Shown here in pieces: positions 8,622 to 29,681 of a DNA stretch of 64,000 bases. This DNA is from an uncultured Gammaproteobacteria bacterium. GTDB lineage: Bacteria; Patescibacteriota; Microgenomatia; UBA1406; GWC2-37-13. How positions within the stretch are numbered: the stretch's first letter is position 1; each line of letters opens with the position of its first letter. The DNA is taken from the NCBI GenBank assembly GCA_964545385.1, contig CAZJFG010000001.1:40365-104364 (forward strand). Direction: 5' to 3'. Under the pieces are notes generated by a model, which saw nothing but the letters and a program-made list of their open reading frames with translations, ran no database searches and was not told the origin of the DNA. Position numbers and translations under genes: made by a program.

Positions 8622-9260
8622 TTATTTTGCCTTCGTGTAAACCGTCATTTTGGCAGACATGCCGTTTTTGATCGCCGGATAAGCGGTCGTATTAAACTTG
8701 GCATAGACGGTAAATTGCTGTGTCACTCGCTCGGTCGAGGTCGAAAAAGAAAACGTCTGCGTATTAGCGCTAGGTGAAATCTGATCAATATAACCCCAAA
8801 AAGTTTTTCCGGGAAGAGCGTCGATTGTGAAAGAAACTACCTGACCAACATGAATAGCCGTTAAACCTTTATCTTCATCGATTGTTCCCACAACTCTTAA
8901 GTTGACCGGCCGGATCATCTGAATCAACGCTGTCTGCGGCCCGGCCATCGAACCGGTAATATCACTTGCGGCAATTATTAAACCCTCCGTATCAGCCCGA
9001 ATTGTTTGCGAACCTACTATCGCCAAAATATCGCCCGTCTGCACCATCTGCCCTTCTTTAACATTTATTTCATAAACTTTACCCGTGGTTGACGGAGAGA
9101 TTGTAATTACCGGCGCCTGAATCAAAGAATTGTCAATACGAATTCTTCCGGTTGTTCCTTGAAAAAAGAGATATAAGCCGACGGCTGAAATTAAAATTAC
9201 AAATGTTCCAGTTAACCAAAGAAATGTTTTATTTTTTAGGAACGCCAGTATTTTTCTCAT
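8622..9260 (-). CDS. HlyD-family periplasmic adaptor (membrane fusion) protein, short form
   Basis: N-terminal TM, then a lipoyl-like hairpin (APVITISPSTTGKVYEINVKEGQMVQTGDILAIV) and a beta-barrel segment. Overlaps the upstream adaptor gene by 4 nt. Confidence 0.75.
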   Translation of the reverse strand: MRKILAFLKNKTFLWLTGTFVILISAVGLYLFFQGTTGRIRIDNSLIQAPVITISPSTTGKVYEINVKEGQMVQTGDILAIVGSQTIRADTEGLIIAASDITGSMAGPQTALIQMIRPVNLRVVGTIDEDKGLTAIHVGQVVSFTIDALPGKTFWGYIDQISPSANTQTFSFSTSTERVTQQFTVYAKFNTTAYPAIKNGMSAKMTVYTKAK

Positions 9261-10363
9261 AAAACTTTATATTTAAACGATGAAATGTATTTGGGATTAA
9301 TAATTATCTCGTCTTCTGCGGTTAATCCTTCTAAAACTTCCATTTTATCACCATGAATTTTGCCGATTTTTATCTCTTTTAGCTTCGGCGTTGTTTTATT
9401 CTTAACCCAGATATATTTATTGCCTAAGACAGTCCAAGCTGGCACCAAAGCCACATTTTTAGAATTTGTACTAATTAACGCTGTTCCCGTCTGGTCTAAC
9501 TTAGCCAGTTCTTTTAATTCATCACTAACGATGTCTACCTGATAAACTCCCTCTCCTGTAGGTAATATTACTTTCGCCGGATAAATTTTAACTATCGTAC
9601 CGGTAATTTTTTTTGATAAACCATCAATGGCCAACGTCACGCTATTACCTTCTGAGAGATAATAAATATATTCCAGGGGAACATTGGCCCGAAAAACCAT
9701 AGTAGTGGGATCGGCAACAACAAAACTGACTGAAGGAGTAATATTGACACCGGCCACCATTACATCTTCATGAGTAATAACTCCATTAAGAGGCGAGGTT
9801 AAAGTGGAAAGTTGAAGAGCGTAGTTGGCCAACTCAACATTAATAACGGAATTATTAAGATTTGCTTGATATTGCTCTATGATTCTTTGGATTGTGTTAT
9901 TTATGGCATCATTTTTGTCGCTTCCCGAAAGACCGGCATTTTTGTAATAATCATAAGGTAAGGTTTGCTGCGCAACAGCAACATTATCGGCCACATTATC
10001 TTTAGTTTGATCAAAAGCGTTGCGCGCAACCTTGTAATTGTTCAGGGCTGCTTCCAGCTGTTTTTGAACGCTGTATGAATCAAGTTTAGCAATCGTTTGG
10101 CCGGCATATACTCTATCTCCTTCTTTAAAAGGTAAATAAACAAGCTTGCCGGCGGTCTGGAAATTAAGTCGAGCCTGGTCTTGAGCAACCACTGCCCCTC
10201 CAACATTAATAGTTGAGGAGACAAATTTTATGGCGCTTGACGTGGTGGCCCCGGTTTCAAATTCGGTCGCAACTTTATTTTGAAAAAATCGCAAACCTGT
10301 CTCCGTTATTCCCAGACCCAAAACGATGATAAAAATGGAAATAAAAATTCTTTTTATTTTCAT
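9257..10363 (-). CDS. Efflux transporter periplasmic adaptor subunit (HlyD/RND-MFP family)
   Basis: N-terminal TM, coiled-coil hairpin, lipoyl and beta-barrel segments. I place the start at ATG 10361-10363 (GGGAGG 7 nt upstream, ATGA overlap with the marR stop) rather than the TTG at 10378 used in the track. Confidence 0.8.
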   Translation of the reverse strand: MKIKRIFISIFIIVLGLGITETGLRFFQNKVATEFETGATTSSAIKFVSSTINVGGAVVAQDQARLNFQTAGKLVYLPFKEGDRVYAGQTIAKLDSYSVQKQLEAALNNYKVARNAFDQTKDNVADNVAVAQQTLPYDYYKNAGLSGSDKNDAINNTIQRIIEQYQANLNNSVINVELANYALQLSTLTSPLNGVITHEDVMVAGVNITPSVSFVVADPTTMVFRANVPLEYIYYLSEGNSVTLAIDGLSKKITGTIVKIYPAKVILPTGEGVYQVDIVSDELKELAKLDQTGTALISTNSKNVALVPAWTVLGNKYIWVKNKTTPKLKEIKIGKIHGDKMEVLEGLTAEDEIIINPKYISSFKYKVL

Positions 10364-10794
10364 AGCTGTTCCTCCCAATTTTTTTTCAATTTTTTTAAAA
10401 TCGTGATAAACTCTCTTTTTTCTTTATTTGTTAGATAAGAAAAAATTTCGTTAAGCTTTTGATGCTGTATATAAACTATTTGCTTTAATATTCTTTTTCC
10501 TTTATCAGTTAATTCTAATCTAACTATCCGTCTATCTTCAAGATCTGAATTTCGCTTGATGAGTTTTTGATCACATAATTTATTAACCAAACTGGTTGCC
10601 GACGGCAACTCAATACGAAAATAATCGGCAATATTACCCATTGTAATATTTTTGTTATCCTTAATTAAGGCGAGAGTTTTTATCTGTAAAAGACTCAAAT
10701 GGGCAAATTCGCATTTATACGGAAGTTTTTTTTTCATCAAGCGAAAAATCTGATATAATAATTCCATTAATTCCGCTTGATAGTTAGACTTCAT
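10360..10794 (-). CDS. MarR family transcriptional regulator
   Basis: Winged-helix block LSLLQIKTLALIKDNKNITMGNIADYFRIELPSATSLVNKLCDQKLIKRNSDLEDRRIVRLELTDKGK. Divergent from the ABC exporter pair. Confidence 0.88.
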   Translation of the reverse strand: MKSNYQAELMELLYQIFRLMKKKLPYKCEFAHLSLLQIKTLALIKDNKNITMGNIADYFRIELPSATSLVNKLCDQKLIKRNSDLEDRRIVRLELTDKGKRILKQIVYIQHQKLNEIFSYLTNKEKREFITILKKLKKNWEEQL

Positions 10795-10872
10795 AATTAT
10801 TAGATTATTTAACTATTATAGAGTATAATATATAAACCTATTTCTGTCAAGATAGTTTAAAATCAAAATAAA

Positions 10873-12612
10873 ATGGAAAGACTATTTCATTATCTTAAGC
10901 CCTATCGTTTTTTATTATTTGTAATTTTCCTTTTGGCTATTGGCCAGTCTTCTGCCAATCTCTATTTGCCAAATTTAATGTCAGATATCGTCAACAACGG
11001 TATCGCGGCTTTTGATACCAACTATATTTGGCGTACCGGAGGAATAATGGTACTCGTAGCTATTGGAGGAACATTATGTTCCATAATCGGCATGTATTTT
11101 TCCACAAGAGTCGCCACCGGCATGGTAAAAACTATTCGAACGGATATTTTTAGAAAAGTGCAAAATTTTTCCCTTCATGAGTTTGATATTTTAAACACTT
11201 CTTCACTAATCACTCGCACGACCAACGACACTATCCAAATTCAACAGCTAATGGTAATTATGCTTGGCCTTTTGATTACGGCTCCGATCACTTTGGTCGT
11301 CGGCGTTGTTTTAGCTCTTAATCAAGATCTGGCGCTTTCCTGGATCATTATTATAATAATACCCATTATTGTCACCTTGGTAGTTGTCCTTCTTTTTAAA
11401 GCCGTCCCTCTTTTTACCTTAATCCAAACCAAGCTTGACCGACTTAACCTTATTCTTGATGAAAATTTGATTGGTGTTCGAGTTATTCGCGCTTTTAATA
11501 AACAAAAACATGAAGAAGAGCGGTTTGATACCGCCAACCGCGATCTCACCAATATTGCTATAAGTGTTAACCGCCTCATTGCCATCATGATGCCAATAAT
11601 GATGCTTATTATTAATCTTTCAACTATTGCCATTATCTGGTTTGGCAGTTTGCGGGTGGCGGCAAATGATCTGCAAATTGGAGCGATGTTTGCTTTTTTG
11701 CAGTATACGATGCAGATTCTTATTTCTCTTTTGATGGTGGCTTTGATGTTTATTATGATTCCCCGGGCTCAAGCTTCCGCCAAAAGAATCAATGAAGTTT
11801 TAGCAATGGAACCGGAAATAAAAGATCCGCCACAAACTGTAGCTATCGGGAAAAAACGCGGCTTTGTTGAATTTCAAGATGTTACTTTTAATTATTTTGG
11901 AGCGGAAAAGCCAGCTTTACAACACATATCATTTAAGGCCGTGCCCGGCCAGACAACGGCCATTATTGGCGGAACAGGTTCCGGAAAGTCGACATTGGTC
12001 AATTTAATAATGCGTTTTTATGACCTTAAGCAAGGAAAAATTTTAGTTGACGGCGTGGATGTCCGCCAAATATCCCAGCAAAACCTACGAGCAAGAATCG
12101 GTTTTGTCCCCCAAAAAGCTATTCTTTTTGCCGGAACCGTTAATGAAAATTTACTTTTCGGCAAAGAAAATGCGACTTATAAAGAAATCGAGCATGCTAC
12201 CAAAATTGCCCAAGCCTATGAATTTATAAAAAAATTGCCGAAAGGTTTCAACTCGCCGATTGCTCAAGGCGGAACCAATATCTCTGGTGGTCAGATGCAG
12301 CGATTATCAATTGCTCGTGCGCTAATTCGTAAACCGGAAATTTATATTTTTGATGATGCCTTTTCCGCCTTGGATTTTAAAACCGATGCTAAATTACGAG
12401 CGGCTTTGAAAGCAGAAACGCGCCAATCAACGGTGATAATCGTTGCCCAACGCGTGAGCACAATTATGGACGCGGATCAGATTATTGTTTTGGATGAAGG
12501 ACGTGTTGCCGGCCAAGGCAAACATCAGGAGTTAATGAAAAATTGTGAGGTTTATCGGGATATTGTTTCCTCACAACTTTCCCAAGTAGAAATTAGCCAA
12601 AAAATAAAATGA
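10873..12612 (+). CDS. ABC transporter permease/ATP-binding protein (exporter half-transporter)
   Basis: Six-TM exporter domain plus Walker A GGTGSGKST, signature ISGGQMQR and Walker B IYIFDDAFSALD. Confidence 0.92.
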   Translation: MERLFHYLKPYRFLLFVIFLLAIGQSSANLYLPNLMSDIVNNGIAAFDTNYIWRTGGIMVLVAIGGTLCSIIGMYFSTRVATGMVKTIRTDIFRKVQNFSLHEFDILNTSSLITRTTNDTIQIQQLMVIMLGLLITAPITLVVGVVLALNQDLALSWIIIIIIPIIVTLVVVLLFKAVPLFTLIQTKLDRLNLILDENLIGVRVIRAFNKQKHEEERFDTANRDLTNIAISVNRLIAIMMPIMMLIINLSTIAIIWFGSLRVAANDLQIGAMFAFLQYTMQILISLLMVALMFIMIPRAQASAKRINEVLAMEPEIKDPPQTVAIGKKRGFVEFQDVTFNYFGAEKPALQHISFKAVPGQTTAIIGGTGSGKSTLVNLIMRFYDLKQGKILVDGVDVRQISQQNLRARIGFVPQKAILFAGTVNENLLFGKENATYKEIEHATKIAQAYEFIKKLPKGFNSPIAQGGTNISGGQMQRLSIARALIRKPEIYIFDDAFSALDFKTDAKLRAALKAETRQSTVIIVAQRVSTIMDADQIIVLDEGRVAGQGKHQELMKNCEVYRDIVSSQLSQVEISQKIK

Positions 12613-23000: not shown

Positions 23001-23617
23001 AACGAGTTGTCAAGAATTCTTTTGACTCGCGGTGAAAGCTGGGGAATACTGTTATTTGTCTCATGTTTATAAATCCGAGCAAGTTCGGTCTCAACTGTTT
23101 GCGGTTGAACTTTTACCTCAACCAGTAGATTGTAAATTTCCGAGTCTGATAAAAGACCGTGAAGCAAATGTTCGCTGTCAACAAATGTCGCTTTTAGCTC
23201 TTTGGCTTTGTTCTGCGCCGAAATAAAAACACGATTTGACCGCTGTGTTAAATGAGTCATCAGATCAAGTTCTGCTTTTTTCTTCTCCTCAGGAGTCTGA
23301 GAGGTAGAAACTGGAGGCTTGACGTTTGAAGTTTGATTATCCAATTTTAACTTTCCAGCATCTTGTGTTTGGTCGGCTTTAGGATTTAAGTTTTGGTTTT
23401 GAGTTTTGACATTTGAGTTTTGAGTTTGTATCGGCGGTGTTCCAATTCCCGAATAAGGCTTTATTCCACCGGGTGGCGTACCAATCCCACTGTAGCTTGT
23501 CGGTTGAGGTGGAGTCGTTTGTTGGATAGGAGGCTGAACAACTGGTTGTTGAGGAGCCCCTTGTTGATATAGAGTTGCATTGCTGTTTGGTTTTTTAATA
23601 AAATCAAAAAAGGCCAT
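19994..23617 (-). CDS. ClpC/ClpB-type two-ring AAA+ chaperone with a Q/P-rich N-extension, a large repeat insertion in NBD2 and a C-terminal zinc ribbon
   Basis: Clp_N repeats. NBD1 has [10 protein letters not shown] and [11 protein letters not shown]2 has [35 protein letters not shown] and GARPLRR. I place the start at ATG 23615-23617 (MAFFDF). The track's upstream extension to 23734 is hydrophobic junk overlapping the divergent gene. Confidence 0.9.
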
Positions 23618-23651
23618 AGAATCATTATTAAAAATAATTAATGTTTTGTCA

Positions 23652-24803
23652 ATGAATAAAAAGATTATTTTTATTTTAAGCGGAGTCCTAATTTTTATTA
23701 TCGTTGTTACAATAATTCTTTCAAGCATTTCCAAAAAAACAAGTCAGACCGGAACAAATAGAACAAATCAAAAAACAAAAACAACCAGCTTGGCAACTAA
23801 CAGTGAAAAAAGCTTTACACCAACCACTCAAAGCCTGACGACGATTGAGGATAATACTAATTTTAAAGTTGAGTATTCACCTCAGACCAAAAAATATGTT
23901 GTTACCAAAAAAACAGTTTCGGCAGATGAGGCGGTTTCCGACTGGCTGACTGAAAATAATCTTTCAACCACATTAAACAATGTTTCGATTGTTGACAAAT
24001 CTGGAGCTTCGGACCTTGCGGCAAATCCCGAAAACAATCAACCAACCAATCTGTCTGACAGTTCAATATCCATCTCCCCGACTGTTTTTTCACTCTCACC
24101 AACAAAAACCGAAGACGAGCTTGCTTATGAAAATAATGCCAAGGTCTTGATTGATCTTTTAAACATTTTTCTAAACGGCGGATCAACAAGCGAAACAACC
24201 AGTCCAACTACCGATTCATCTTCTCTATCTCCAAGTTCAATTCTAACTCTTTCGCCAACAAGCAAAAAAACCGCCGGTTCAGCATCAACAAAGTATGTTT
24301 ACTATGCCCAGTGCGGAGGAAGTTTCGACAACTATGCCCTACCTTCTGGCTGTACTGTCTGTGTGGCCGGTTGCGGCCCAACAACCGTTGCCATGATCGT
24401 CGCTTCCTATATCGACAAAAGTGTTACGCCAAAGACCGTGGTCGACCTTTACAGACAAAAAGGATATTTTTTAGGCTGTGCCGGTTCACGGACAACAGAC
24501 GCCAAAGCAGCTCTTGCTTCATATGGTGTTAAAACAACTGATTACATGACATTCAACTATGCGACAATAGATACGGCGGCTTCGGAGTTCAAAAATTACC
24601 TTAACAACGGCTGGACAATCTTTGTTCTGACCAGTTTTTGCGACAGCGGCTGCGGCCATTTTTTCTGGATTACAGCCCTTGGAGGCGACAACGCCACCTG
24701 GGCCTACGATCCTTATTATGGAAAAAGCCAGACACCACCGATTAATGAAAAAACTCGTTACCCGTTTCCAAAGTACCGGATTGCGTTTGGAGTTAAAAAA
24801 TAA
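23652..24803 (+). CDS. Membrane-anchored S/T-rich protein with C-terminal papain-like (peptidase C39-like) domain
   Basis: I place the start at MNKKIIFILSGVLIFIIVV (23652). C-terminal YYAQCGG...VAGCGPTTVAMIVASY (catalytic Cys context) and a downstream GCGHFFWITA (His). Confidence 0.7.
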   Translation: MNKKIIFILSGVLIFIIVVTIILSSISKKTSQTGTNRTNQKTKTTSLATNSEKSFTPTTQSLTTIEDNTNFKVEYSPQTKKYVVTKKTVSADEAVSDWLTENNLSTTLNNVSIVDKSGASDLAANPENNQPTNLSDSSISISPTVFSLSPTKTEDELAYENNAKVLIDLLNIFLNGGSTSETTSPTTDSSSLSPSSILTLSPTSKKTAGSASTKYVYYAQCGGSFDNYALPSGCTVCVAGCGPTTVAMIVASYIDKSVTPKTVVDLYRQKGYFLGCAGSRTTDAKAALASYGVKTTDYMTFNYATIDTAASEFKNYLNNGWTIFVLTSFCDSGCGHFFWITALGGDNATWAYDPYYGKSQTPPINEKTRYPFPKYRIAFGVKK

Positions 24804-25905: not shown

Positions 25906-27609
25906 ATGTTCTCTTTTTTAAAGAAAGTATTCAGTATCACTAAAAAAGTCTTTCTTGTAATTGCTGTTTATTTTACCATCATTAGTCTTTTCATGTATTT
26001 TTTCAACAAAGAAAAACCAAAAACAACCTACGACCCTATCCAAAAAAATAGACAAGAAATATACAAAGTTATTAACGATAAAAAAATTGCATCGACAAAA
26101 GAAGGAAGAACAATATTGAAAATCTATCGGGCGGTTATGTGTTCGTTTATCGGCGAAGCCTGTACAGATAACCCTGAAGATGGAGACAAAAATTTTAATA
26201 AAAGTATTTTAGGTCGAACTAGTAACTTGATAACTCTTACTTATTCAAATCCACCGGCATCAGGTGTCTACTGGGCTTATTCTAGTCTGGAAAACGCAGG
26301 ATTTATTCCAAAAACCTATGCGGCCGAAGGCTTGGGATTCAACGCACTAAAACCTTTTATGAATATCTGGAAGGTATTTCGAGATATTTGCTATATGCTT
26401 CTTGTAATTGTTCTTATTGCCATTGGTTTTATGGTCATGTTTAGAACAAAAATTAATCCCCAGACTATAATTTCTGTGGAAAATGCCCTTCCAAGAATCG
26501 TAATTTCATTAATTCTTATTACCTTTTCTTTTCCAATCGCCGGTCTACTGATTGATTTAATGTATGTATTTATTGTTATAGCAATTGCCATTCTTGGTAA
26601 TAAAGGTAATTTTTTTAATATTACTGAGTTTCAAAATAAATATCTTGGGGCAAACTTTTTTACAATAGGCACTGGTCTTTTTCCTCTTGGTTTTTTTACA
26701 ACTATAGGAAGACTTGCGAACTCAATAGTTGCTTTATTACCAATAATTATAAACCAATTCCTAAGACTAGCCTTGGGAATTACGGGTTCAATTTTATTGA
26801 TGCAGCTTTCACACCCAATATTTAGCACACTTAGTTCAATAAATGAAACTGTTAGTGGGAATATAGCGACTGAACCCGTTGGAGGAATATTTGAAATTTT
26901 TATAGAGGGAATTATTTCCGTTTTATTAGGAATTGTTGGTTTTGGATTGGGCTATACAAGTTTAACTATTGTTGTTGGTATCTTAGTATTTTTTACTTTT
27001 ATATTTACACTTTTCAGAATTTTTTTTCTTCTTTTTTCTTCTTATATAAAAATTTTCTTGATGGCGATATTCTCGCCTTTTTTCGCCCTTTTTGAGGCTA
27101 TTCCTGGCAAAAACAGTTTTAGTTATTGGTTAAAAAGTCTTTCTGCGGAAATTTTTGTCTTTCCGATTGTTATTATCTGCTTTGCCCTTTCTTATTTAAT
27201 TATTAATATACTTCCTCTAAATGGTAATATTTGGCAACCTCCTTTTTTGACACAGCTTGACCCAGAAGCGTTTACGACACTTCTTGCGATTGGTATTTTA
27301 TTTTTAATTCCCGATATCGTTAAGCTTGTCAAACAGATGTTTGGAATAAAAGATACACCGATTAACCTTGGAGTTGGGACATATTTTGGTGGAGCAGGTG
27401 CTGCAATAGGTGGAACTCAAGGAGCTATGAGTGGTCTTTCATCCCTTTCACAAATGCCGTTTATTGGTTTGAAAATTAGACAGGCAGCTTTGAATAGACC
27501 AGATGACAAACCTGGCTTCTGGGGCACCCTATTCCCGGTATCTATAGCTGAAAAATACTACAATCAACAACTACAGAATGCTAATAAAGAAGCTAAAAAA
27601 AATGGATAA
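25906..27609 (+). CDS. Large polytopic membrane protein (possible TrbL/VirB6-like; function unassigned)
   Basis: 567 aa with at least 9 hydrophobic helices and a Gly-rich C-terminal segment GGAGAAIGGTQGAMSG. I recognise no enzymatic motif. The VirB6-like suggestion rests only on topology and pilin-like neighbours. Confidence 0.6.
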   Translation: MFSFLKKVFSITKKVFLVIAVYFTIISLFMYFFNKEKPKTTYDPIQKNRQEIYKVINDKKIASTKEGRTILKIYRAVMCSFIGEACTDNPEDGDKNFNKSILGRTSNLITLTYSNPPASGVYWAYSSLENAGFIPKTYAAEGLGFNALKPFMNIWKVFRDICYMLLVIVLIAIGFMVMFRTKINPQTIISVENALPRIVISLILITFSFPIAGLLIDLMYVFIVIAIAILGNKGNFFNITEFQNKYLGANFFTIGTGLFPLGFFTTIGRLANSIVALLPIIINQFLRLALGITGSILLMQLSHPIFSTLSSINETVSGNIATEPVGGIFEIFIEGIISVLLGIVGFGLGYTSLTIVVGILVFFTFIFTLFRIFFLLFSSYIKIFLMAIFSPFFALFEAIPGKNSFSYWLKSLSAEIFVFPIVIICFALSYLIINILPLNGNIWQPPFLTQLDPEAFTTLLAIGILFLIPDIVKLVKQMFGIKDTPINLGVGTYFGGAGAAIGGTQGAMSGLSSLSQMPFIGLKIRQAALNRPDDKPGFWGTLFPVSIAEKYYNQQLQNANKEAKKNG

Positions 27610-27702
27610 AACTTACTTTAAACTCTTAAAATAACAATTTTATTTAATTTAAGTAAAATGTTTAACTTATTCTTTTAAGCAATTGTGTCCTTAATAAATA
27701 AT

Positions 27703-27873
27703 TTATTGTTTTTTTGCATCTTCTGTAGAAACATAAAGAGCTTTTGCAAAATCACCAAGTTTAATTTTTCTTGATTTATTTTTTCTTACAAATCCATACA
27801 TATTTTTATCAATTGTCACTTGTGATTTTCCATTAAAAAGCAATCTACCAAATTTTTCTTCTCGGATGAACAA
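27703..27873 (-). CDS. Small PqqD-like (RiPP recognition element-like) ORF, TTG start, tentative
   Basis: Own translation gives (M)FIREEKFGRLLFNGKSQVTIDKNMYGFVRKNKSRKIKLGDFAKALYVSTEDAKKQ*. The pattern resembles PqqD-family peptide chaperones. It sits immediately downstream of the radical SAM gene. There is no ATG, and it is below the ORF-track length cut-off. Confidence 0.3.
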   Translation of the reverse strand: MFIREEKFGRLLFNGKSQVTIDKNMYGFVRKNKSRKIKLGDFAKALYVSTEDAKKQ

Positions 27874-27908
27874 ATTTGGTATAAATTTATAAAAACTATT
27901 TGGGTTTA

Positions 27909-28719
27909 TTAAGTCTGTTTGGGATAAAGAATAGTTGTGTAAAAAATCAGGTTTTCTTGAAAAATCGGCGTAAAGATCAGATTCTTTTCCATTTTTTCCC
28001 AGGTTTTATTAAGCCCATCAAATATATTTCCATATGTTAAAGAAAGATGTGGACAAGGTCTTATTGGACCATCAATCCCGATAATGATCAAGTTTCTTCC
28101 GGCACTGCATCTTTTTGCGCCAAAGAAATCATAATCATTTTGATTGTCAAAAAGACAAATCGGATAAGAAGTTAACGTATCAACCTCAATTCTGATTTCT
28201 TCTTTGATTCGTTTTAATTCATCGAGGGCATATCTAATTTGAGCAGGGGTCAGAGCGAACATACTAAAATCCTTACAAGGTAATGGTCTGCAAGCTTTTG
28301 TCGCTGAAAATTTAGAAGTTTCTAGTTCTTTTGCTAGTTTTGCTATTTTAAATAGATGATTTAATAACTTAATTTTTTTGGCGATTTCGTCGGTCAGTAA
28401 TGTTAAGTTAGAATTAATATTTGTTTGAATACTTTTTTTTGTTAAACGAACAAGGTGAGGATAAATATCATTCGGTAATAATTATTTTGTAAACTTGATT
28501 TTTTATTAACTCATCGACTATTTTTTTATATGTATTTTTAATTTTATTTTTATTAACGATGAGTTTTTTTGTTTCCGTGCTTCTCCAATAGTTATAACAA
28601 TACAAACAATTATGATTACAGTTATCCGTAACTTCCCAATGAGTATAAAGAAGACTTTTTAAAGTAATTAGACTTTGTTGTATAATCATTAATTTACAGA
28701 GCAATTGCAACTTACGCAT
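27909..28719 (-). pseudogene. Radical SAM peptide maturase with SPASM/Twitch-type C-domain, disrupted at the GGE motif
   Basis: Fragment 1 (28468..28719) has the CNHNCLYCY (CX3CX2C) cluster and ends ...VYKIIITE* where GGEP is expected. The reading frame continues in another frame from 28481 (LLPNDIYPHLVRLTKK...INSNLTLLTDEIAKK...) into fragment 2 (27909..28262). Fragment 2 carries CSAGRNLIIIGIDGPIRPCPH...YGNIFDGLNKTW. Confidence 0.75.
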
Positions 28720-28837
28720 GAATCACAAGAATAATAATGACAGTCGCAAGGAAATCTTAAACCGCCTAAATCTTACAGTAAATCCTCTAGCTTGTTTTTC
28801 TTTTAATATTTTTTTCTTTCTTTTCTGTCTTTCTCAT
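28689..28837 (-). pseudogene. Remnant of a Cys-rich RiPP precursor (SCIFF/ranthipeptide-like)
   Basis: Own translation of 28692-28772 gives DLGG-LRFPCDCHYYSCDSCVSCNCSVN, then TAA overlapping the ATG at 28687-28689 (TAATG). Upstream in the same frame is KKNKLEDLL followed by TAA. A Lys-rich leader MRKTEKKEKNIKRK lies in a neighbouring frame. Confidence 0.4.
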
Positions 28838-28973
28838 CACGTTACTCTTGTTCTTTTCTTTTTTTTCATTTTCAGCGTCTATCGCAGCTTGTTTCGCAGC
28901 ATTTATTCCGTTAAGAATTATTTTCAATCTTCTGAAGACATATGACAACATTATAATTTCCTTTATTATCAAC

Positions 28974-29681
28974 CTAACCACCAAATCCTGGAATTTTCAG
29001 AATATCCACTCCAATTAATCTCAATATAAATACTGAAAAAACAATAAGCATCAATCCCATGATACAAGAGATAAGAAGCTCCTGGGCTTTTTTGATTTTC
29101 TCCGGATTACCTCGTGAAGATTGAAGCTGGAAGACGGAAAAAATTATACAGATCATAGCAATAATTCCAGCCAAGCCCACTCCCCAACTAAGTAAAAATT
29201 CTGAAACAAAACTTGAAAAATCACCAGGGATACACCCCAAAGCTGTCCAAATTCCACCACTGTTCCCACATGTTTCACAGGTTGATTTTTCGTCTGAAGA
29301 AATATATTTATCGCAAAGGTTTTTTACCGCCTCAATTGGTGTAGGGGTAATCTGCGACTCTTTTAAACATGTACAATTGTTCAAATCGCTTGTGTCAGAA
29401 GGATAACCTATAACACAAGGAACTATATTTTGACTTCTTTTTAACAAAGAAATTATTTGGACAATTTTGTTGATAAACTCTATGCTTTGTAATGCGGATG
29501 GAATTGTTGGTGTTGAAACATCAATTTCTTGACAACATTTTATTGAGGTTGGTTCGGTTGCTTCCGCATTCCCGCAGGAAACGCCTGGAAGCGCAATGCG
29601 TGGAGTCGGTGTTTGAGCATAAACAGTATTAATTTTGCCAAACATTAATACTGCAAGGATAATTAATAATATCTTTTTCAT
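28974..29681 (-). CDS. Secreted Cys-rich protein with C-terminal T4SS-pilin-like two-TM module
   Basis: Signal peptide MKKILLIILAVLMFGKINTVYA, a Cys-rich ectodomain of about 140 aa, then GIWTALGCIP-TM-SSRGNPEKIKKAQELL-TM. Confidence 0.65.
   Translation of the reverse strand: MKKILLIILAVLMFGKINTVYAQTPTPRIALPGVSCGNAEATEPTSIKCCQEIDVSTPTIPSALQSIEFINKIVQIISLLKRSQNIVPCVIGYPSDTSDLNNCTCLKESQITPTPIEAVKNLCDKYISSDEKSTCETCGNSGGIWTALGCIPGDFSSFVSEFLLSWGVGLAGIIAMICIIFSVFQLQSSRGNPEKIKKAQELLISCIMGLMLIVFSVFILRLIGVDILKIPGFGG

Follow-up and report, generated by a model that had tools for sequence, protein, structure and literature searches.

What was encoded by a Cys-rich reading frame that runs into a broken radical S-adenosylmethionine (SAM) gene, and is the pair dying or simply badly assembled? 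The question is raised by a minus-strand locus at positions 27703-28984 of a 64,000-nucleotide stretch of contig CAZJFG010000001.1 (referred to here as the window), which comes from an uncultured bacterium deposited as a member of the Gammaproteobacteria and placed by GTDB within the Microgenomatia. An earlier reading, referred to here as the original prediction, saw a decayed cassette for a peptide made by the ribosome and modified after translation (RiPP) and left both answers standing. The comparisons described below favor the first. In all likelihood, the locus is the decayed, non-functional remnant of a two-gene radical SAM/SPASM cassette, a judgement that takes together the nature of the ancestor, the mode of action of its intact form and the death of both genes. 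One ancestral protein would have carried a Cys-rich C-terminal tail in which the cysteines are separated by Asp, Asn or Ser. The other would have been a translationally coupled radical SAM enzyme of ~440 amino acids (aa) whose full SPASM domain holds two auxiliary [4Fe-4S] clusters and to which a RiPP recognition element (RRE), a PqqD-like winged helix, is fused at the C-terminus. Translation of the minus strand from 28990 to 27700 in three frames yields the following features.

28787-28984, minus strand: open reading frame (ORF) of 65 codons with a TTG start and a Lys/Glu-rich segment; doubtfully the N-terminal remnant of a carrier protein
28692-28775, minus strand: Cys-rich remnant of a putative substrate tail, DLGGLRFPCDCHYYSCDSCVSCNCSVN, with an in-frame TAA (28775-28773) directly before it and no start codon
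28468-28691, minus strand: TAATG stop/start overlap and N-terminal radical SAM fragment of 73 codons with CNHNCLYC, ending at TGA 28470-28468
28467-28476, minus strand: junction of lesion 1 (ACC-G-AAT), ~23 nt deleted, placed by alignment columns 76-82 and a base-level reading
27909-28472, minus strand: middle enzyme fragment of 187 codons (NDIYPHL...), holding NSNLTLLT, lesion 2 and the first SPASM half, from translation and alignment
27976-27986, minus strand: junction of lesion 3, a deletion of ~37 aa with a frameshift, placed by alignment columns 302-338
27703-27978, minus strand: C-terminal RRE-like fragment of 91 codons (DLYADFS...EDAKKQ, then stop), which includes a 56-codon ORF

The radical SAM gene and its lesions

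The radical SAM gene is split over three frames between 28689 and 27703. It begins MIIQQSLITLKSLLYTHWEVTDNCNHNCLYCYNYW... and stops at a TGA after IIITE (28470-28468), continues in a second frame from 28472 to 27909 (NDIYPHLVRL...NSNLTLLT...CSAGRNLIIIGIDGPIRPC...KTWEKMEKN...), and ends in a third from 27978 to 27703 (DLYADFS...LFIREEKFGRLLFNGKSQ...EDAKKQ). The three pieces joined amount to 328 aa and match intact proteins of 425-444 aa covering 97-100% of the query. The closest intact homologue, P0001 (444 aa), covers 100% of the query with 57% identity over aligned columns. The N-terminal fragment matches Pfam Radical_SAM (E 1.5e-5) and aligns from M1 of the homologues, which supports the internal ATG at 28687-28689 (MIIQQSL...) that the original prediction had preferred as the start of a protein with a CNHNCLYCY cluster. 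The SPASM/Twitch pattern that had been seen in the C-terminal part also proved genuine, with CSAGRNLIIIGIDGPIRPC forming the first half of a SPASM domain (C...CSAGRN...GPIRPC). In hidden Markov model (HMM) scans, the pieces give radical SAM and SPASM matches, all of them weak.

Against intact relatives of 436-444 aa, the gene shows four lesions, which were placed by alignment to P0001-P0004 and P0008. At the first (near 28473), GGEPLLVF is gone and one base remains, corresponding to a deletion of ~23 nt and a frameshift. Both translation and alignment locate this break after IIIT, exactly where GGEP belongs, as had been claimed. At the second (near 28365; 28362-28370), ~55 aa of the barrel have been deleted in frame. 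The third (near 27980) combines the loss of ~37 aa with a frameshift and takes out the CxxCx5CxxxC motif that ligates the second SPASM auxiliary cluster; its cysteines are invariant or nearly so among 61 family members. The fourth is the stop at 27703, which takes away the last ~19 residues and cuts within the final helix. The second and third of these lesions had been overlooked in the original list of damage, which did include the frameshift at the GGEP site. The lesion map is consistent with the NCBIfam profile position, which leaps from ~95 to ~210 across just 33 query residues. GGEP and ~55 aa of the barrel are therefore missing from the window copy though CNHNCLYC is kept, while the same region of P0001 is intact (Pfam Radical_SAM 72.8 bits), and only the first three Cys of the seven-Cys SPASM ligand set remain.

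Such damage could in principle reflect sequencing or assembly errors, for example at homopolymers, in a locus that is still alive, and lesion 3 does adjoin A-runs. However, repairing the frame would leave ~8, 55, 37, and 19 residues missing in comparison with every intact homologue, and the missing parts include GGEP, core strands of the barrel, and four invariant or nearly invariant SPASM Cys. Long intact ORFs, moreover, are tightly packed over the remainder of the window. Nor does the frame open if TGA is taken as a sense codon: under an alternative genetic code in which the TGA after IIITE encodes Gly, the frame runs into further stops inside 21 codons, and elsewhere in the window table 11 yields long ORFs. 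Because the 55- and 37-aa deletions remove essential motifs, the gene is, as judged from its sequence, a true pseudogene and not an assembly slip. Of the two possibilities that had been left standing, decay is thus retained and misassembly is not; a live locus is extremely improbable.

The Cys-rich frame upstream of the enzyme

Positions 28772-28692 of the minus strand read DLGGLRFPCDCHYYSCDSCVSCNCSVN, with 6 Cys within the final 19 residues, and the TAA of this frame (28691-28689) overlaps the enzyme ATG (28689-28687), both as originally described. An in-frame TAA does precede DLGG, as had also been stated, and it lies immediately before this motif (28775-28773) rather than two codons away. 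The meaning of the frame is best approached through relatives of the enzyme. In a maximum-likelihood tree, the window pseudogene falls in a clade with the enzymes of loci L004, L025, and L021 (support of 100 in the Shimodaira-Hasegawa-like approximate likelihood ratio test), with that of L026 as sister (99). In L004, the upstream gene ends 11 nt before P0001 and encodes a 305-aa protein ending ...IPGILIQDVLNGKGSLSLERGFSCYHSSCYSCNACDSCDSCNCDGR (tail ...CYHSSCYSCNACDSCDSCNCDGR). The L025 enzyme is 62% identical to P0001 and is preceded by a 293-aa orthologue of the L004 carrier (38.6% identity) that ends ...FGLRNFDCYSSNSATCN. The partial upstream gene of L021 ends ...IPGIIFSSRGYKNIPLNFYHCDDSGYNCYTEMCMCAT, and L026 has a 182-aa upstream protein with a K/E/Q-rich N-terminus that ends ...STSDGSCAGGC, 7 nt before the enzyme start. 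These Cys-tailed proteins end 7-48 nt before the enzyme start. A Cys-bearing tail directly upstream of the enzyme is thus shared by the window remnant and the four intact clade relatives. The carriers of the clade are protein-sized (182-305 aa), and the intact ones in L004, L025, and L026 begin with K/E/Q-rich, coiled-coil-like stretches.

Several observations weigh against reading the locus as a dead pair of substrate and enzyme. Translated in six frames, the window contains four stretches with six Cys in 19 codons, two of which are stop-free, and the original argument that this density is very unlikely to arise by chance does not hold. The tails of the clade vary from 2 to 7 Cys, leaving the core motif loosely defined, and the 305-aa L004 carrier finds only itself among 5.8 billion proteins and contains no Pfam domain. 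Similarity between the upstream remnant of the window and the carriers is limited to ~10 tail residues (E 0.017), with no significant N-terminal match by BLASTP or tblastn. Furthermore, the chemistry proposed below for the family is drawn by analogy.

It could therefore be argued that only the radical SAM pseudogene is real and that the Cys-rich frame is a chance off-frame product of an AT-rich spacer. In addition to the recurrence of six-Cys stretches, the frame lacks a start codon, is just 27 codons long, and matches a carrier tail over a short distance. Against this, it is the best tblastn match in the window to the L004 carrier tail (SCDSCVSCNC versus ACDSCDSCNC, 8/10 identical), its TAATG falls exactly on the enzyme start, and it occupies the same position as the Cys-bearing tails of the four intact clade relatives. 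It also has GLR-F-x-C in common with the L025 tail, and its Cys spacing and Cys-Asp pairs resemble those of the family cores. A chance origin of the frame is very unlikely.

The most economical reading of the sequence is that the window once held a carrier gene, of which the tail alone survives. The 65-codon K/E-rich ORF may be a surviving N-terminal piece of that gene. When it was compared with the carriers by BLASTP and tblastn, no significant match was obtained, and what is left is a compositional, K/E-rich likeness. An alternative possibility is that the ancestral precursor was a short stand-alone peptide of ~45-95 aa and not the tail of a 180-305-aa protein. Only 285 nt separate the stop of the neighboring pilin gene from the enzyme start, short precursors are usual in the wider family, and no significant similarity to a carrier body survives. 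On the other hand, the four intact clade members all have protein-sized upstream carriers, the short precursors of the wider family sit downstream and not upstream, and in a locus with four deletions in the enzyme the loss of a carrier body would be in keeping. A short ancestral precursor is unlikely on this evidence, and a protein-sized substrate that has since lost its body is preferred.

The precursor of 45-50 aa with a double-glycine leader that had first been envisaged is not borne out by the relatives, where the tails belong to proteins of 182-305 aa. At the position of the GG, relatives read LERGFSC, FGLRNFDC, and PLNFYHC, and GG is found in the window tail only. Since the GG of DLGG is not conserved in the relatives, a double-glycine leader is unsupported. 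A different leader motif was also sought in the carriers: the strict regular expression derived from the short precursors of the wider family misses their IPG[IV]LI, and the likeness is visual only.

Enzyme architecture, wider family and probable chemistry

The intact architecture is best seen in P0001, which passes the SPASM model TIGR04085 (51.7 bits versus a cut-off of 27) and remains below every NCBIfam equivalog cut-off. Its best matches are to NirJ2 (100 versus 500 bits), AhbD, ScmE, and PapB (NF047865; 80.9 versus 340 bits, with 16.6 bits for the joined window protein). Five further, more remote members, some of them from Clostridia and Azospirillum genomes, likewise reach no NCBIfam cut-off. 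Searching the joined enzyme against radical SAM/SPASM families, a check that had been proposed, gives a weak assignment to the class and none to a subfamily. An AlphaFold2 model of P0001 built on 61 family sequences has a pLDDT score of 92.8 (predicted local distance difference test), and its best Foldseek matches in the PDB are the peptide-modifying SPASM/twitch enzymes SkfB, SuiB, CteB, TigE, anSME, and PqqE.

The last ~90 residues of the homologue are predicted to form three strands followed by three helices. Modeled alone (pLDDT 91), this domain matches mostly RRE-containing RiPP proteins in Foldseek, namely MccB, McbB, ThcOx, PqqD, TigE, PbtF-RRE, lasso-peptide B1, and SuiB (E 0.013-0.3). 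Its sequence profile retrieves winged-helix proteins, and the Pfam PqqD model has no match to the window enzyme pieces. According to the model, the homologue has an RRE of PqqD-like fold, and the window copy keeps this domain minus its last helix. The 56-codon ORF with a TTG start that had been called PqqD-like and taken for a separate gene is present at 27703-27873. The fold assignment agrees with the model and Foldseek, whereas the separate gene does not: the ORF extends in frame upstream to 27978, and the corresponding domain of the homologues is the fused C-terminus of the enzyme. In CteB and SuiB, the RRE is N-terminal.

The enzyme belongs to a large family. When 1.84 billion representative proteins were scanned, clusters formed at 50% identity and matching with E no higher than 1e-30 numbered at least 427. 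Among the 150 clusters listed, most are ~420-450 aa long and many align into the C-terminal domain. Among named family genomes, ultra-small Patescibacteria predominate (Microgenomates, Daviesbacteria, WWE3, Uhrbacteria, Saccharibacteria, Shapirobacteria, and Paceibacterota), with some Clostridia, Desulfobacteraceae, Azospirillum, and archaeal metagenome-assembled genomes. No published description of this radical SAM/SPASM family was found in the literature searched.

Downstream sequence was sufficient in 75 loci, and in 55 of these there is a short ORF of 30-85 aa on the same strand, Cys/Asp-rich and starting -60 to +300 nt from the enzyme stop; such ORFs are also present in named genomes. These short precursors carry a hydrophobic N-terminal motif (GFVSLV, GFETIL, GIVSLL, or GIVPLV), with the strict regular expression matching 28 of the 55. 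Their cores contain a median of 5 Cys in 19 residues, and Cys makes up 28% of the core and Asp 19%. No residue follows Cys more often than Asp, which does so in 134 cases, and the spacing from one Cys to the next is in most cases 1-3 residues. NCBIfam models match neither the window tail, as regards precursor models, nor any of ten short precursors of the family. An adjacent, co-oriented candidate substrate gene is thus a feature of the clade, as an upstream tail, and of 55 of the 75 family loci, as a downstream ORF. The sequences indicate that the window clade departs from the family in two ways, in that its substrate is upstream and is carried on a full-size protein. The commonest other neighbor, in 31 loci, is an HExxH protein of ~220 aa. 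Two examples that were scanned match Peptidase_MA_2 (35.8 and 37.8 bits versus a cut-off of 32.4), and the protein is plausibly the leader peptidase.

In seven family loci (L048, L059, L065, L075, L080, L081, and L098), an 85-93-aa ORF with a Pro/Cys repeat tail, e.g., PPLPPPPCVGTPPPCVGTPPPPCYGEPPGCYG..., lies ~800 nt downstream of the enzyme gene and is a candidate second type of precursor in the same family. A distant family locus, L023, contains a YcaO-nitroreductase fusion gene and a 50-aa ORF (9129-11324) ~2.6 kb from the radical SAM gene, a pair that may represent a second RiPP system on the same contig.

The original prediction compared the cassette to SCIFF-type ranthipeptides and sactipeptides. 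The general organization of a Cys-rich precursor, a radical SAM/SPASM enzyme, and an RRE does hold for the wider family, and the ranthipeptide/sactipeptide likeness is supported by the Foldseek matches and the Cys-rich precursors. Membership of SCIFF itself is not, as no cut-off is neared and the RRE is C-terminal. Like the SCIFF peptides and their maturases CteB and Tte1186 (TIGR03973/TIGR03974), the family places a Cys-rich C-terminal core beside a radical SAM/SPASM enzyme with an RRE, and CteB (5why) is one of the top structural matches. In contrast to CteB, however, the RRE is not N-terminal, and the precursors are not SCIFF-family peptides of ~45 aa. The window frame has six Cys, but it has no start codon, is preceded by a stop, and so does not form a stand-alone peptide of this size. 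The SCIFF maturase model TIGR03974 (cut-off 425 bits) does not appear in the 25 top-scoring NCBIfam families of P0001, P0002, or P0003, and the families listed are far below their cut-offs.

Other known systems are similar in part. In the system of PapB and its substrate PapA (freyrasin), too, the core on which the radical SAM/SPASM enzyme acts repeats Cys together with Asp acceptors, and of the NCBIfam matches the one to PapB is one of the better. It falls far short of 340 bits, though, the RRE is C-terminal here, Cys spacing is 1-3 here as opposed to CxxxD, and the core in the window clade is the tail of a 182-305-aa protein. In Methanococcus voltae, CrpC (TIGR04463) introduces ranthionine links in the Cys-rich C-terminal region of the adjacent full-size CrpA, and its RRE is N-terminal (PMC13692751). 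The pairing of a SPASM radical SAM enzyme with a neighboring full-size protein that has a Cys-rich C-terminal region is shared with the window clade. CrpC belongs to a different enzyme family, however: unlike it, P0001 has a C-terminal RRE and does not have TIGR04463 among its matches, and the tails here are 10-25 residues long while CrpA has ten 17-residue repeats. Finally, the PDB entry closest in sequence is PqqE (6c8v, E 7e-8), and the C-terminal domain superposes on PqqD (5sxy, TM score 0.6). PqqD is separate or fused elsewhere, however, PqqE makes a Glu-Tyr C-C bond in PqqA, and no pqq genes are present here.

On the basis of these analogies, we infer a mode of action for the intact relatives. 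The C-terminal RRE would bind the short hydrophobic motif preceding the core, and the radical SAM cluster would then make a 5'-deoxyadenosyl radical. A hydrogen atom would be abstracted from an acceptor, probably the Asp or Asn flanking each Cys, and the SPASM clusters would help to form a thioether bond to Cys. The product is most likely a set of Cys-to-Asp/Asn thioether cross-links of the ranthionine or sactionine type. Precedents for thioether formation include PapB (Cys-Asp), NxxcB (Cys-Asn), and CteB (PMC8326336; PMC9413430).

It is also possible that the family is real and its chemistry is something other than thioether formation, such as Cys oxidation of the kind carried out by anSME, epimerization, or C-C links, or that the Cys/Asp peptides are metal-binding partners. 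No member reaches any thioether-forming equivalog cut-off, the best NCBIfam scores are to the heme enzymes NirJ2 and AhbD and to ScmE, the top structural matches include anSME and PqqE, and Cys/Asp-rich peptides could bind metals. Nevertheless, a fused RRE next to a peptide with a conserved leader-like motif is the standard signature of a RiPP substrate. Furthermore, a core that is more than a quarter Cys and in which Cys is most often followed by Asp is reminiscent of the Cys-plus-acidic-acceptor motifs of PapB substrates (PMC8326336; PMC9413430). Some other chemistry is regarded as somewhat unlikely, and thioether cross-linking remains the preferred product.

As a dead gene pair without present function, the locus by itself is of low interest, and its value is as a pointer to a large uncurated family that, together with its protein-tail clade, is moderately interesting. 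In the window clade, the apparent targets of the enzyme are tails of full-size proteins, substrates of a kind experimentally shown only recently (CrpC/CrpA). With rather less than even confidence, the intact relatives may be viewed as an undescribed, Patescibacteria-centered, RiPP-like class in which a SPASM radical SAM enzyme with an unusual C-terminal RRE cross-links cores extremely rich in Cys and Asp. Under this tentative view, the entire precursor in the window clade would have become the C-terminal end of a 180-305-aa protein, whose tail the enzyme would staple instead of making a small peptide; the product might have a link to the neighboring envelope or pilus genes, and the window would represent a recent loss from a minimal genome. 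If true, RiPP-like chemistry would be added to organisms thought to be poor in secondary metabolism, and the window would provide a natural case in which such a system entered a variable genomic slot and was later worn away by deletions.

Genomic setting and further observations

In this small-genome, Patescibacteria-like bacterium, the cassette is flanked by a T4SS_pilin-family gene (28974-29681, PF18895) and by a convergent gene for a 567-aa polytopic membrane protein (25906-27609), leaving a slot at 27610-28973 that holds the dead pair. In the related genome G006, 5 nt separate the pilin gene from that of the membrane protein (L193 4304-4310) and the slot is empty, while in the same-genus genome G001 it is filled by a DOT1-like methyltransferase gene (PF08123, 67.7 bits; L192 9296-9913). 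Because the gap is 5 nt in one genome and holds a methyltransferase gene in another and the cassette here, it is a variable slot. An orthologue of the enzyme is found in none of 121 related genomes, where the best matches are other radical SAM/SPASM proteins with 24-31% identity; a first scan of the genome contigs with P0001 as sole query gave no match. The intact cassette that the original prediction had hoped to find in related genomes is thus missing from them, and it was recovered more widely in the clade loci L004, L025, and L026 and partially in L021. The cassette was probably acquired at the variable slot and then eroded by deletion. No informative repeats or terminators bracketing it were found.

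A conserved link to the membrane protein was considered and set aside. A homologue of this protein adjoins the enzyme in L004 (28% identity, E 1e-41), so that the two are adjacent in both L004 and the window, but the association is absent in L025. The 1249-aa neighbor shows no similarity to the 995-aa neighbor in L004. Both intact close relatives have genes or remnants of the 23S_rRNA_IVP type (four-helix-bundle, Avd-like) in the neighborhood of the cassette (L004 7149-7523; L025 1-219).

The C39-like protein encoded at 23580-24803 (407 aa) had been tied speculatively to the cassette as a leader protease. It scores 23.1 bits with PF13529, whose cut-off is 24. Orthologues of it occur in 8 relatives in which the cassette is missing, the flanks sequenced around the intact clade loci contain no such gene, and the link was dropped. 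The sub-threshold Peptidase_C39_2 match is confined to the C-terminal 140 residues of the protein. It is the C-terminal half (~180-407) that is conserved in relatives, and the N-terminal half is lineage-specific.

The same genome contains an intact second system, L017, at ~25.3-29.4 kb of the contig G000:C1, ~11 kb before the window start. Its radical SAM/SPASM enzyme (L017 1117-2580; 487 aa) is PapB/SCIFF-like with an N-terminal extension and scores 161 bits against the PapB model, which has a cut-off of 340. Sixteen nucleotides downstream, L017 2596-3420 encodes a 274-aa protein that is K/E-rich at its N-terminus and bears Cys in its tail (...SSLDCSRDCSSPSGNDYCCM). The 274-aa protein is not significantly similar to P0011; the layout of the pair is analogous to that of the carrier clade.

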